A DNA stretch of 64,000 nucleotides, from contig CAWGJO010000026.1 of the NCBI GenBank assembly GCA_963822945.1, positions 32,001 to 96,000 on the forward strand, given 5' to 3'. Made by a program: the position numbers and the translations under genes. Below are positions 870 to 18,270 of the stretch, one piece after another. Numbering within the stretch: the stretch's first letter is position 1; every line of letters starts with the position of its first letter. A model generated the notes under the pieces. That model saw only the letters and a program-made list of their open reading frames with translations. It searched no databases and was not told the DNA's origin. Source of the DNA: an uncultured Gemmatimonadaceae bacterium (lineage in GTDB: Bacteria > Gemmatimonadota > Gemmatimonadetes > Gemmatimonadales > Gemmatimonadaceae).

Positions 870-2128
870 GCGCTCGTCTGTCACAACTGGCTCAGGGACT
901 CGTCGGATCGGAGATCCTCAAGATCGCCGCCGAAGTGCGCGAACTCATCGCGCAGGGGCGGCCCATCTGCAACCTCACGGTCGGCGACTTCTCGCCCACC
1001 GAGTTTCGGGTGCCGGAGCGGCTGGCCCGCGGCGTCGCCGACAACGTCACCAAGGGGCAGACCAACTATCCGCCCTCCAACGGCGTGCTCGAACTGCGCA
1101 AGGCCGTGGCGGCGTTCTACAAGCGCGGGCTCGGGCTCGACTATCCGATCGAGAGCATCATGATCGCGTCGGGCGGGCGCCCGGTCATTTACGGCGTCTA
1201 CCAGACGGTGGTCAACCGGGGCGACACGGTGGTGTACCCCGTGCCGAGCTGGAACAACAACCACTACGCCAGCCTGGTCGGGGCCAAGGCCGTGGAGATC
1301 ACCTGCGGCGCCGACACCAACTTCCTGCCCACGGCCGCCATGCTCCGCGAGCATGTGCGTGGGGCGTCGCTGCTCGCGCTCAACTCGCCGTCCAATCCCA
1401 CCGGCACGCTATTCACCGACGAGCAGCTCGGTGACATCTGCGATCTGGTGCTCGAGGAGAACGCCCGCCGCGGCAGCGGCGACCGCCCGCTGTTCGTGAT
1501 GTACGACCAGATCTACTGGATGCTCACCTTCGGCGGCGCCCATCACGTGAATCCCGTGGGGCTGCGTCCGGAGATGGCCAAGTACACCGTATTCGTCGAC
1601 GGCATCTCGAAGGCCTTCGCGGCCACCGGACTCCGGGTGGGCTGGGGGGTGGGGCCGGCCGATGTGGTGAAGAGCATGGCCGACCTGCTCACCCACATCG
1701 GCGCCTGGGCGCCGCGGCCGGAGCAGATGGCCACCGGCGAGCTGCTCTGCGCCGAAGACGACATCCGCGACTACCACGCCGTGATGATCCGCGACGTTCA
1801 GGAACGCCTGGGGCTCATGGCCGAGGGCATCGACCAGCTCCGGCGCGAGGGGTTCCCGGTGGAGAGCACCACGCCCCAGGGGGCCATCTACCTGAGCGCG
1901 CACTTCGGGCTGCACGGCAAGCGCAGGCCAGATGGCCAGGAACTCCGCACCAACGAGGACGTGCGCCGGTACCTGCTGCAGGCGGCGGGCATGGCGGTGG
2001 TGCCCTTCCAGGCCTTCGGCCAGCGCGAGGAGACGGGCTGGTTCCGCCTCTCGGCGGGCGCCGTGTCGCCGCAGGCGGTGCGCGAGCTGATCCCGAGGCT
2101 GCGGGGGGCGCTGCAGGCGCTGCGCTAG
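866..2128 (+). CDS. PLP-dependent aminotransferase class I/II (aspartate aminotransferase-like)
   Basis: NSPSNPTG, YDQIY and SKAFAATGLRVGW (PLP lysine); ATGA overlap with the upstream gene. Confidence 0.92.
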   Translation: MSARLSQLAQGLVGSEILKIAAEVRELIAQGRPICNLTVGDFSPTEFRVPERLARGVADNVTKGQTNYPPSNGVLELRKAVAAFYKRGLGLDYPIESIMIASGGRPVIYGVYQTVVNRGDTVVYPVPSWNNNHYASLVGAKAVEITCGADTNFLPTAAMLREHVRGASLLALNSPSNPTGTLFTDEQLGDICDLVLEENARRGSGDRPLFVMYDQIYWMLTFGGAHHVNPVGLRPEMAKYTVFVDGISKAFAATGLRVGWGVGPADVVKSMADLLTHIGAWAPRPEQMATGELLCAEDDIRDYHAVMIRDVQERLGLMAEGIDQLRREGFPVESTTPQGAIYLSAHFGLHGKRRPDGQELRTNEDVRRYLLQAAGMAVVPFQAFGQREETGWFRLSAGAVSPQAVRELIPRLRGALQALR

Positions 2129-2157
2129 CGCGCCGGACCCCGGAATGGCACAACCGG

Positions 2158-2241
2158 GCGCGAACTCACGTACCTTCCTGACGTGAGGTCGCGCGCCGGG
2201 TGCGGCGCGCCGGGTTCCCCAACCAGGAGGGTACGGCCATG
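2158..2241 (+). promoter_or_regulatory. Candidate cis-regulatory leader: hairpin with anti-Shine-Dalgarno loop
   Basis: Stem 2158-2171/2181-2194 (one mismatch); loop ACCTTCCTG (2172-2180) can pair with CAGGAGGGT (2224-2232). Confidence 0.5.
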
Positions 2242-2499
2242 AGTTGGATCATCTCCCTGATCATCGGCGGCATCGTCGGCTGGCTGGCCAGCATCATCAT
2301 GAAGACGAACGCTCAGATGGGCCTGGTCGCCAACGTGCTGGTCGGCATCGTCGGCGCGGTGCTGGGCAGCTGGATCGCGGGCCTCGTGGGGCTGGCCCCC
2401 ACGGGCGGGGTCGGCCGGTTCCTCGTCGCCCTGCTTGGCGCGGTCGTCCTGATCTTCATCCTGCAGGCGCTCGGATTCTTCAAGAAGAAGCCCGCGTAG
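2239..2499 (+). CDS. GlsB/YeaQ/YmgE (transglycosylase-associated) stress-response membrane protein
   Basis: MSWIISLIIGGIVGWLASIIM...NVLVGIVGAVLG family pattern; AGGAGG RBS. Confidence 0.9.
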   Translation: MSWIISLIIGGIVGWLASIIMKTNAQMGLVANVLVGIVGAVLGSWIAGLVGLAPTGGVGRFLVALLGAVVLIFILQALGFFKKKPA

Positions 2500-2607
2500 C
2501 GTCCGGCGTGCCGGCGCGCCGGCTGTCAGGACACGCAACGGAGCCATGGGGGCACGGCGGCGAGCCGTGCCCTTTGCTTCATGCCGCAAACGGGTGATCT
2601 TGGAACG

Positions 2608-3450
2608 ATGACGACACTTGCCCTGGCTCCCGAAACGCTCGAAGGCTGGTACGTACTGCACCAGACCTTTGCCCTCGACCGCCCGGCGCTGCGCGCCCTG
2701 ACGCCGGCGGAGTTCGACGCCGTGGCGCGCGATTTCGCCGCGGCCATGCACGACCTTTCCGGCGGCGATGGCGCCCAGGGGTGGAGCGCGCTCGTGCCCC
2801 TCGTCGGGTCGAAGGCCGATGTCATGGTCATGCACTTCCGTCCCACGCTCGACGAACTGGGCGTGGCGCAGGCGCGGCTCGCCCAGGCACGGCTCACCGA
2901 CTTCGTGTCGCCCGTCGAGTTCTTTCTCAGCGTCGCCGAGGCCGGGCTCTATTACATCACCGCGCAGCTCGCCAAGGCCGCCGACGCGCGCGGCGGCAAG
3001 GTGGGCGACGACGAGTACCGGGCCGAGTTGAAGAAGCGCGTCGATGCCGAACTCGCCACCGAGCACGTGCGCAAGCGCCTGTACCCGCCGCCGCCGAGCG
3101 ACCGGATGCCGTACGTCTGCGTGTATCCCATGGACAAGAAGCGCGAGACGGGGCAGAACTGGTATGCACTGCCCATCGAGGCGCGCAGCGATCTGATGAA
3201 GTGGCACGGTCTCACTGGACGGAAGTACGCCGGGCGCGTGCTGCAGATCATCAGCGGGTCCATCGGACTCGACGTGTGGGAATGGGCGGTGACGCTGTTC
3301 GCCGCCGATCCTCTGGAATTCAAGAAGATCGTGAGTGAGATGCGCTTCGACGAGGCGAGCGCGAAATACGGAGAGTTCGGCAACTTCTACGTGGGGAAGA
3401 TCGCGGCCCCCGAGGCGTGGCTGAGCACGCTGCGTCCGGCCGCCGGGTAG
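2608..3450 (+). CDS. hemQ: Coproheme decarboxylase (HemQ/ChdC, chlorite dismutase family)
   Basis: YPMDKKR...NWY, proximal His (WHG), QIISGSIGLD.WEW and EMRFDEASAKYGEFG; start could be 2581. Confidence 0.85.
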   Translation: MTTLALAPETLEGWYVLHQTFALDRPALRALTPAEFDAVARDFAAAMHDLSGGDGAQGWSALVPLVGSKADVMVMHFRPTLDELGVAQARLAQARLTDFVSPVEFFLSVAEAGLYYITAQLAKAADARGGKVGDDEYRAELKKRVDAELATEHVRKRLYPPPPSDRMPYVCVYPMDKKRETGQNWYALPIEARSDLMKWHGLTGRKYAGRVLQIISGSIGLDVWEWAVTLFAADPLEFKKIVSEMRFDEASAKYGEFGNFYVGKIAAPEAWLSTLRPAAG

Positions 3451-18196: not shown

Positions 18197-18270
18197 CGGG
18201 ACGTAGCGCAGTCCGGTAGCGCACCTGAATGGGGTTCAGGGGGTCGCGGGTTCGAATCCCGCCGTCCCGA
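18197..18270 (+). tRNA. tRNA-Pro (anticodon GGG), CCA not encoded
   Basis: Acceptor CGGGACG/CGTCCCG-A, D arm, anticodon stem CCTGA/TCAGG with loop ATGGGGT, GGTTCGAATCC T arm. Confidence 0.95.

Follow-up and report, generated by a model that had tools for sequence, protein, structure and literature searches.

SAM-II riboswitches, in which a hairpin loop and the Shine-Dalgarno (SD) sequence form an H-type pseudoknot, are one described system that the element examined here resembles, and the IS10 transposase represents another, being a case of transcript-length control related to that of phage T4. In T4 gene e and I-TevI, a long transcript folds into a helix that covers the SD and AUG, and a promoter nested in the region of the 5' strand produces a short mRNA that is translated, as described in a passage of PMC3014915; for the IS10 transposase, SD sequestration is documented by a citing passage and a reference title (PMC13181058). 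preQ1 riboswitches control que genes and transporters (queCDEF, queT and yhhQ), and preQ1-I shares with our locus an SD-complementary hairpin loop and a possible H-type pseudoknot of about 7 bp, as far as the relevant part of PMC11625349 describes it. The Li+-I/II (nhaA-I/II) and Na+-I (DUF1646) riboswitches are associated with cation transporter genes (part of PMC9646797); they resemble this locus in nothing beyond having been suggested for it by an earlier sequence-only reading, and they gave no Rfam match here.

We analysed a window of 64 kb (by which we mean the whole stretch of DNA under study), in which that reading had proposed that a hairpin loop pairs with the SD of a YeaQ/YmgE stress gene and controls it through a riboswitch-like pseudoknot or an alternative fold. 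The sequence and the gene order were observed directly, and the features to which the text refers are as follows.

866-2128, + strand: class I/II aminotransferase gene (PF00155), a possible source of read-through RNA.
2131-2154, + strand: probably what is left of the ancestral spacer between the aminotransferase gene and chdC (gene order; a local alignment with the spacer of genome G009 that is short and weak).
2158-2194, + strand: hairpin or inverted repeat P1, with a 14-position stem (2158-2171/2181-2194, 13 Watson-Crick pairs) and a 9-nt loop (2172-2180).
2163-2180, + strand: 5' strand of the alternative helix ALT (anti-SD and anti-AUG), upstream of the predicted +1.
2167-2182, + strand: 16-nt core CACGTACnTTCCnGAC, matched at 16/16 positions in genome G012 and 14/16 in genome G003.
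2171-2176, + strand: predicted sigma70-type -10 box TACCTT, the best -10 of the leader, with no good -35.
2183, + strand: predicted transcription start, a 6-nt spacer after the -10 (G here, A in G012, T in G003).
2183-2242, + strand: possible leaderless uORF of 19 codons, with a GTG start (ATG in G012) and a TGA that overlaps the yeaQ ATG.
2224-2235, + strand: SD region (AGGAGG at 2225-2230), 3' strand of the 12-bp ALT core.
2239-2499, + strand: GlsB/YeaQ/YmgE-family (transglycosylase-associated) membrane protein of 86 aa (PF04226, 36.5 bits, cut-off 25.3), here called yeaQ.
2550-2610, + strand: ancestral spacer hairpin and conserved leaderless promoter of chdC (-10 GATCTT at 2596-2601, ATG at 2608).
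2608-3450, + strand: chlorite dismutase / HemQ-ChdC family gene.
18197-18270: tRNA gene (RF00005), the sole Rfam match at gathering score in the 64-kb window.

When we re-derived the pairing, the stem, the loop and the 12-nt match to the SD were found at the coordinates reported earlier, including the single G-U (2169-2180 pairs with 2224-2235 through 11 Watson-Crick pairs and 1 G-U), and the gene's assignment to the YeaQ/YmgE family was borne out by a PF04226 score above cut-off. The one mismatch of the P1 stem is an A.G at 2164/2188, and the loop reads ACCTTCCTG. A contig from a public soil run, which may be related to the source sample, matched 2091-2244 with 0 differences. Folding added six further Watson-Crick pairs (2163-2168 with 2240-2245) after a 4-nt bulge, so extending the match to ALT, an 18-bp helix that spans the SD and start codon of yeaQ, encloses an inner region of 43 nt (i.e. 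a long-range helix) and is mutually exclusive with P1. In an H-type geometry, a 9-nt loop is unable to pair fully while its stem stays closed, and the 12- and 18-bp forms therefore need P1 to be opened; the ceiling for a pseudoknot is about 7 bp (2174-2180/2224-2230), computed at -8.5 kcal/mol as a duplex.

In RNA reading through from the aminotransferase gene, the computed probability of ALT was 0.85-0.99 in all 30 contexts for G012, 0.00-0.99 depending on context in the genome of the window (G000), and at most 0.09 in G003. P1 was dominant only in some G000 contexts and reached at most 0.12 in G012; the two folds are near-isoenergetic in G000 by computation, and flip with context and temperature. 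We also computed, with pseudoknots left out of the model, the cost of opening positions -15 to +3 of yeaQ in read-through versus short RNA. The extra cost in the read-through RNA was +2.2 to +9.5 kcal/mol in G012 and -2.2 to +3.8 kcal/mol in G000 (rank 22 of 73 comparable genes), with no consistent effect in G003, and the small and mixed values in G000 are explained by the competition of P1 with ALT. The SD opening cost fell only from 6.4 to 4.6 kcal/mol across 15-45 C (computed), and in G000 ALT, the OFF state, rose from 20 to 37 C (computation only), the wrong direction for a heat-opened RNA thermometer, which we rejected. The supposition of the sequence-only reading that an alternative fold could shut the SD is credible on thermodynamic grounds for RNA that includes 2163-2180, and for no other.

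We derived a promoter consensus from G000 itself, TTG(A/C)C-17-TAnnTT, and this consensus and its spacing are direct observations on the genome: TA..TT occurs 338 times in its leaders versus 146.5 in shuffled ones (2.3-fold), with GTA..TTCC enriched 3.7-fold, and the distance from -10 box to start codon has a peak at 6 nt, with 70 genes where other spacings have about 17 (n = 3341). In the leaders of G000, G012 and G003, no -10 candidate scores higher than TACCTT (7.5, 8.3 and 8.7); it ranks 378 of 1425 as a -10, and lies 68 nt from the yeaQ ATG, where the genome median is 63. From the peak at spacer 6, the +1 of yeaQ is predicted at 2183, and a yeaQ mRNA begun there would contain neither the loop nor the 5' arm; the element would lie outside it, whereas read-through RNA would include it. 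From these data we infer that the -10 box is used and that transcription starts at this position. The changes between genomes are consistent with this: G2183A in G012 retains a purine at +1 and breaks a P1 pair, and the C-to-A change within the hexamer in G003 falls at a position that the -10 consensus leaves free (C 0.35, A 0.31) yet breaks the middle of the anti-SD helix. In G004, where yeaQ is elsewhere in the genome and the element is absent, a canonical TTGACA-17-TAGTGT is found at a similar distance from the gene, and throughout the genus the promoter of chdC shows conservation that spans a comparable length (TTTG..(G/C)ATCTT-N6-ATG, at 2573-2610 here, kept in 12 of 17 genus loci). The GlsB/YeaQ/YmgE family appears among stress responses in a table of the Pseudomonas RpoS regulon, at 0.165-fold (down), in the part of PMC6372562 that lists it. 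Such an entry fits control at the promoter level by analogy, though from another phylum.

The site thus shares TAnnTT, a 6-nt spacer to a purine and a typical ATG distance with sigma70 promoters, and differs from them in having no -35 and in being embedded in a 14-bp inverted repeat, which leaves it a candidate site by prediction. No usable -35 box was found (scores -4.1, -4.1 and -10.1 in G000, G012 and G003), and the promoter is a deduced one because a good -35 is absent; the two-box score ranks 730 of 1425, and a generic promoter scan of the region returned neither a promoter nor a -35. A -10 score of at least 7 occurs in 33% of real versus 18% of shuffled leaders, and is for that reason weak alone. 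In public runs, for which contigs were the material, an RNA contig from run X19, a run with a small word share, covers 2257-2407, part of the yeaQ coding sequence, with no coverage of the leader. Other promoter types were rejected: no sigma54 GG(-24)-N10-GC(-12) box is present in 2129-2240, and the ECF consensus was either absent from the site or not conserved. A LexA-like GAAC-N4-GTAC box is lost in G012 and absent upstream of lexA and recA of G000.

Several observations on promoters elsewhere may be recorded here. Many mRNAs of G000 look leaderless, with start codons 6-7 nt after the -10 (70 + 48 genes versus about 17). Among 346 strong promoters with longer leaders in this genome, 10 have an out-of-frame ATG or GTG at spacer 6, and in 5 of these 10 the short ORF ends at a stop codon that overlaps the start of the main gene; it is possible, judging from their sequences, that they are leaderless uORFs coupled to the main gene. 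Upstream of lexA (L240) and recA (L241), a TTCG-N7-TTCG direct repeat was seen by eye over the promoters and is a candidate SOS box of the lineage. Distant yeaQ-family leaders (L017, which is from the unpublished genome G022, L019-L022, L153 and L155, with L020 the same as L022) have a sigma54-type GG(C/T)AC-N5-TTGC box 57-115 nt upstream.

The host genome is best read as belonging to a Gemmatimonadaceae-like genus; among the matches listed, the closest named relatives carry the label Gemmatimonadaceae or Gemmatimonadota. Of the 17 genomes of the genus, 4 (G000, G012, G003 and G008) have yeaQ next after the aminotransferase gene, 11 have chdC directly after it, and the remaining two have another gene or a contig edge at this position. 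As the ancestral spacer hairpin and chdC promoter are now found behind yeaQ, with an apparent remnant of the spacer at 2131-2154, we conclude that a cassette was inserted. From the alignment, yeaQ and the element appear to have entered together in a cassette that begins near 2155, and the insertion junction would fall roughly at the expected -35 position. No intrinsic terminator was found after the aminotransferase gene in a generic promoter and terminator scan. In G000 and G012, spacer 2129-2242 holds an open frame continuous from the aminotransferase TAG to the TGA over the yeaQ ATG. We rejected stop-codon read-through from the aminotransferase, as the frame is not kept in G003 and G008, whose spacers of 222 and 36 nt put it out of frame. 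The peptide of the 19-codon uORF differs at 2 internal residues in G012; G003 keeps the uORF frame and the stop overlap, but its +1 is no start codon.

We examined whether the pairing recurs in related leaders. The 162 loci among the matches listed gave 129 distinct leaders of at least 120 nt with an SD, which were scored (5 duplicate or mis-assigned loci and 4 without an SD were dropped, together with short or identical leaders and those in which no start was called; 2 of the 129 came from unpublished G022, leaving the result unaffected). A 12-bp anti-SD was present in 2 of them (G000 and G012); one unrelated leader has a 10-bp anti-SD, and three leaders hold the core motif. The combined pattern was found in 2 of 301 genomes of the order. 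Metagenome and genome scans returned, among the matches listed, mostly relatives of 40-80%, and closer strains may exist. A DNA search with 2129-2241 found no hairpin homolog in the 201 family genomes (again excluding G012); its hits were short, fell nearly all in the GC-rich part that follows the loop (E at least 8e-5) and were taken as chance, and a protein search of 401 family genomes yielded no additional close orthologs. The core pattern with 1 mismatch occurs in 251 of 401 genomes and is commoner than its reversed control. However, 30 inspected loci were mostly coding by eye, for which reason we ascribed the excess to codon usage and discounted it as evidence of a promoter or RNA motif. 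In five ortholog leaders (L003, L004, L005, L136 and L148), short C-rich stretches located 3-8 nt ahead of the SD may allow a small hairpin with it, a weak feature that may possibly be generic in GC-rich leaders.

The pattern of change among the orthologs was directly observed. Between G000 and G012, divergence is 6% at third codon positions and 12 of 110 positions in the spacer; the arms of P1 carry 3 differences in 28 positions, with 0 compensatory changes, leaving 11 Watson-Crick pairs, 1 GU and 2 broken pairs in G012, where the original mismatch has become a wobble. P1 is eroding at the background rate of the spacer. The ALT core is identical in the two genomes and its extension one pair shorter in G012; zero core changes are uninformative at this divergence. 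In G003, 14 of 16 core bases are kept (46 of 2000 shuffles reach this, p about 0.02), collinear in position and with diverged flanks, and P1 is reduced to 5 of 14 pairs; the ALT core has 10 of 12 pairs, with 1 compensatory change, 1 new wobble, and 1 internal and 1 terminal break, and the two core changes are also compatible with the coding frame (TYLPD/TYIPD). A second MAFFT alignment placed another G003 hairpin opposite P1; matched to the SD by hand, this hairpin yields no more than about 8 pairs out of 12, and it was left unused. In G008 the protein is 88% identical and the gene in the same position, with a 36-nt spacer that lacks the element. What persists is therefore the core in three genomes and ALT in two. 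The loop-SD pairing, which the sequence-only reading expected orthologs to conserve, does not hold in G003 (where ALT is at most 0.09), G008 and G004, and at 12 bp is missing from 127 of the 129 leaders among the matches listed; neither does P1 show the covariation for which it had proposed a test, with 2 pairs broken and 1 wobble gained in G012. These changes suggest an absence of selection on the pairing, although with three informative genomes the conservation tests have low power.

Against chance, the pairing is rare by length and less so by energy. From 3360 genes called in G000 by a simple script, we scored the 561 SD-bearing leaders of at least 60 nt. The 12-bp SD-covering helix of the yeaQ leader is the longest (the runner-up is 10 bp), the only one of at least 11 bp over the SD, and of a length for which shuffles predict 0.1 cases; the hairpin together with the loop-SD match is an architecture unique among the 561. 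Cross-pairing real promoters with real SDs gave 12 bp in 2 of 27060 combinations, or 0.012 expected for 165 genes, and a -10 box lies in the loop of a stem of at least 13 bp in 3 of 165. By energy, at -28.2 kcal/mol, 142 of 20000 shuffles do as well and the rank is 38 of 561 (3 of 561 by z); with the resulting p of 0.007, about 4 cases this good would be expected in a genome; the region as a whole does not fold unusually (z -1.15), and 106 of the 561 leaders contain a 12-bp hairpin of some kind. Pairing of promoters with their own SD over at least 6 bp shows no excess genome-wide (9 seen versus 10.1 expected), and over at least 8 bp a small one (4 versus 1.2) that includes the yeaQ case. These p-values are optimistic, because the thresholds were chosen after the case was seen, and the window came from a very large scan. 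The rarity of the pairing is a hint, and does not establish function. Four other G000 leaders sequester their SD strongly (L236, C21 near 340572; L237, C36 near 100287; L238, C28 near 11343; L239, C17 near 61390). None has an Rfam match at E 0.5 or better, and the SD-pairing test thus has no positive control.

Comparison with described RNA classes gave a similar picture. An Rfam 15 covariance search of 1500-3200 returned best E-values of 2-9, all far below gathering, the whole 64-kb window gave only a tRNA, and the G012, G003 and G008 loci gave none; the Rfam check that the sequence-only reading had recommended found no match, with nhaA-I/II, preQ1 and SAM-II among the families covered. The element differs from preQ1-I and SAM-II in its 14-bp stem, in having no A-rich 3' tail and no conserved pocket nucleotides, in its downstream gene (PF04226, unrelated to queuosine or SAM) and in its occurrence in two genomes only. 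The proposal of a riboswitch-like pseudoknot, lacking an Rfam match and covariation, with P1 eroding and the loop coinciding with a -10 box, falls short in those membership tests that were possible and is not supported, at the low power that three informative genomes afford. Among the papers listed, we found none on this element: YeaQ, YmgE and GlsB have no mention in the main text of a 50-genome motif survey (PMC11109978), nor transglycosylase in the text of a 224-motif paper (PMC5737381), and the supplements of both could hold gene associations. Likeness to T4 gene e and IS10 consists in the position of 2163-2180 upstream of the predicted +1 at 2183, and is conditional on the promoter being real; in contrast to T4 gene e, the locus has a long-range helix (43-nt inner region), a competing hairpin and a chromosomal stress gene, and the computed effect appears clear in G012 only.

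We consider it somewhat probable, on balance, that the region is an internal promoter for yeaQ whose own mRNA lacks the anti-SD, the pairing being incidental. Under this model, the yeaQ/ymgE cassette would have brought its promoter region with it between the aminotransferase gene and chdC in one branch of the genus; the sigma70-type -10 TACCTT (2171-2176) would sit in the P1 loop and transcription would start at about 2183, within the 3' arm, such that the yeaQ mRNA would carry neither P1 nor the anti-SD and expression would be set at the promoter. The loop-SD match would then reflect partly the natural complementarity of TAnnTT-CC to GGAGG and partly chance, and P1 would be a young, decaying inverted repeat. 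Not all of the evidence fits well. The 12-bp match is rare even given a promoter (2/27060), as is a -10 box in the loop of a stem of at least 13 bp (3/165); there is no -35, the two-box rank is 730/1425, and the +1 is a T in G003; and the match to the G003 core has a p of about 0.02, with changes that fit the coding frame as well. Between G000 and G012 the ALT core has not changed, and in G003 it carries one compensatory change; both speak against the pairing being incidental.

In the main rival model, the same observations are read as a promoter combined with a silencer of read-through, in which RNA from the aminotransferase gene would fold into ALT and remain untranslated and RNA from the nested promoter would be translated. 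We regard this as unlikely, while giving it real weight, and hold the same doubtful opinion of its corollary, that the inserted stress gene is insulated from the host operon and P1 is a toehold for the anti-SD or a by-product. The geometry fits, with the 5' strand overlapping the -10 box and the 3' strand covering the SD and AUG, and T4 gene e and I-TevI are a precedent (a passage of PMC3014915); the aminotransferase gene lacks an intrinsic terminator, and the 36-nt spacer of G008 suggests read-through in the lineage. In G012 ALT dominates (0.85-0.99) and opening costs 2.2-9.5 kcal/mol more in read-through RNA, and between G000 and G012 the ALT core is kept while P1 decays, 10 of 12 pairs surviving in G003 with one compensatory. 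However, the extra cost in G000 itself is only -2.2 to +3.8 kcal/mol (rank 22/73), G003 does not form ALT, G008 has no element, and promoters show no genome-wide excess of pairing to their own SD at 6 bp or more and a small one at 8 bp or more. A bistable translational switch in the read-through operon mRNA, with P1 as ON and the pseudoknot or ALT as OFF, is less likely again, and equally improbable is that a ligand, ion, protein, temperature or upstream ribosome triggers it. The exposed, SD-complementary loop, the architecture unique among 561 leaders, and the near-isoenergetic G000 folds that flip with context and temperature are what such a switch would predict, but there is no Rfam match, it occurs in 2 of 301 genomes of the order and 2 of 129 leaders, P1 does not covary, the balance is gone in G012 (P1 at most 0.12), nucleotides conserved and unpaired for a ligand pocket are missing beyond the -10-like core, and warming favours OFF in G000, the opposite of a heat-opened thermometer. 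The more specific versions are very unlikely: ligand sensing; and a recent, lineage-specific bistable switch of no described class, in which a toehold anti-SD in read-through RNA is driven by ligand, ion or protein into strand displacement to the 18-bp helix, and which a nested promoter with its -10 in the same bases would bypass.

At the other extreme, the element could be a young GC-rich inverted repeat with an accidental match in a read-through spacer, neither promoter nor switch. The lack of a -35, the 12-bp hairpins in 106 of 561 leaders, the roughly 4 equally good energies per genome and the selection of the case from a very large scan are all compatible with this. It is nonetheless improbable, considering that the G003 core is kept at 14 of 16 bases, collinear between diverged flanks, and that the -10 matches and a purine start codon stands at the genome's +1 spacing in two genomes. 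Repressor sites often overlap -10 and +1 positions, and a repeat centred on a -10 box is unusual (3/165), so that a DNA site, a repressor operator or a cruciform over the -10 box and +1, was also considered. We think this highly improbable: with up to 4 mismatches allowed, the genome holds no further copy of the 23-nt palindrome, TCACGT..ACGTGA sites elsewhere appear coding by context, complementarity in the DNA drops to 11 of 14 in G012 and 5 of 14 in G003, and the LexA-like box is lost in G012 and absent before lexA and recA.

A ligand-sensing switch, if true, would be a new riboswitch class, and nothing here supports one. If read-through is silenced, the locus would be a chromosomal case of the trick used by phage T4 and IS10, by which an inserted stress gene is insulated from the operon around it. 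If the internal promoter with incidental pairing is the correct reading, yeaQ would be served by an ordinary promoter, and the locus would illustrate a pitfall, TAnnTT-CC boxes being mimics of anti-SD loops in GC-rich genomes.
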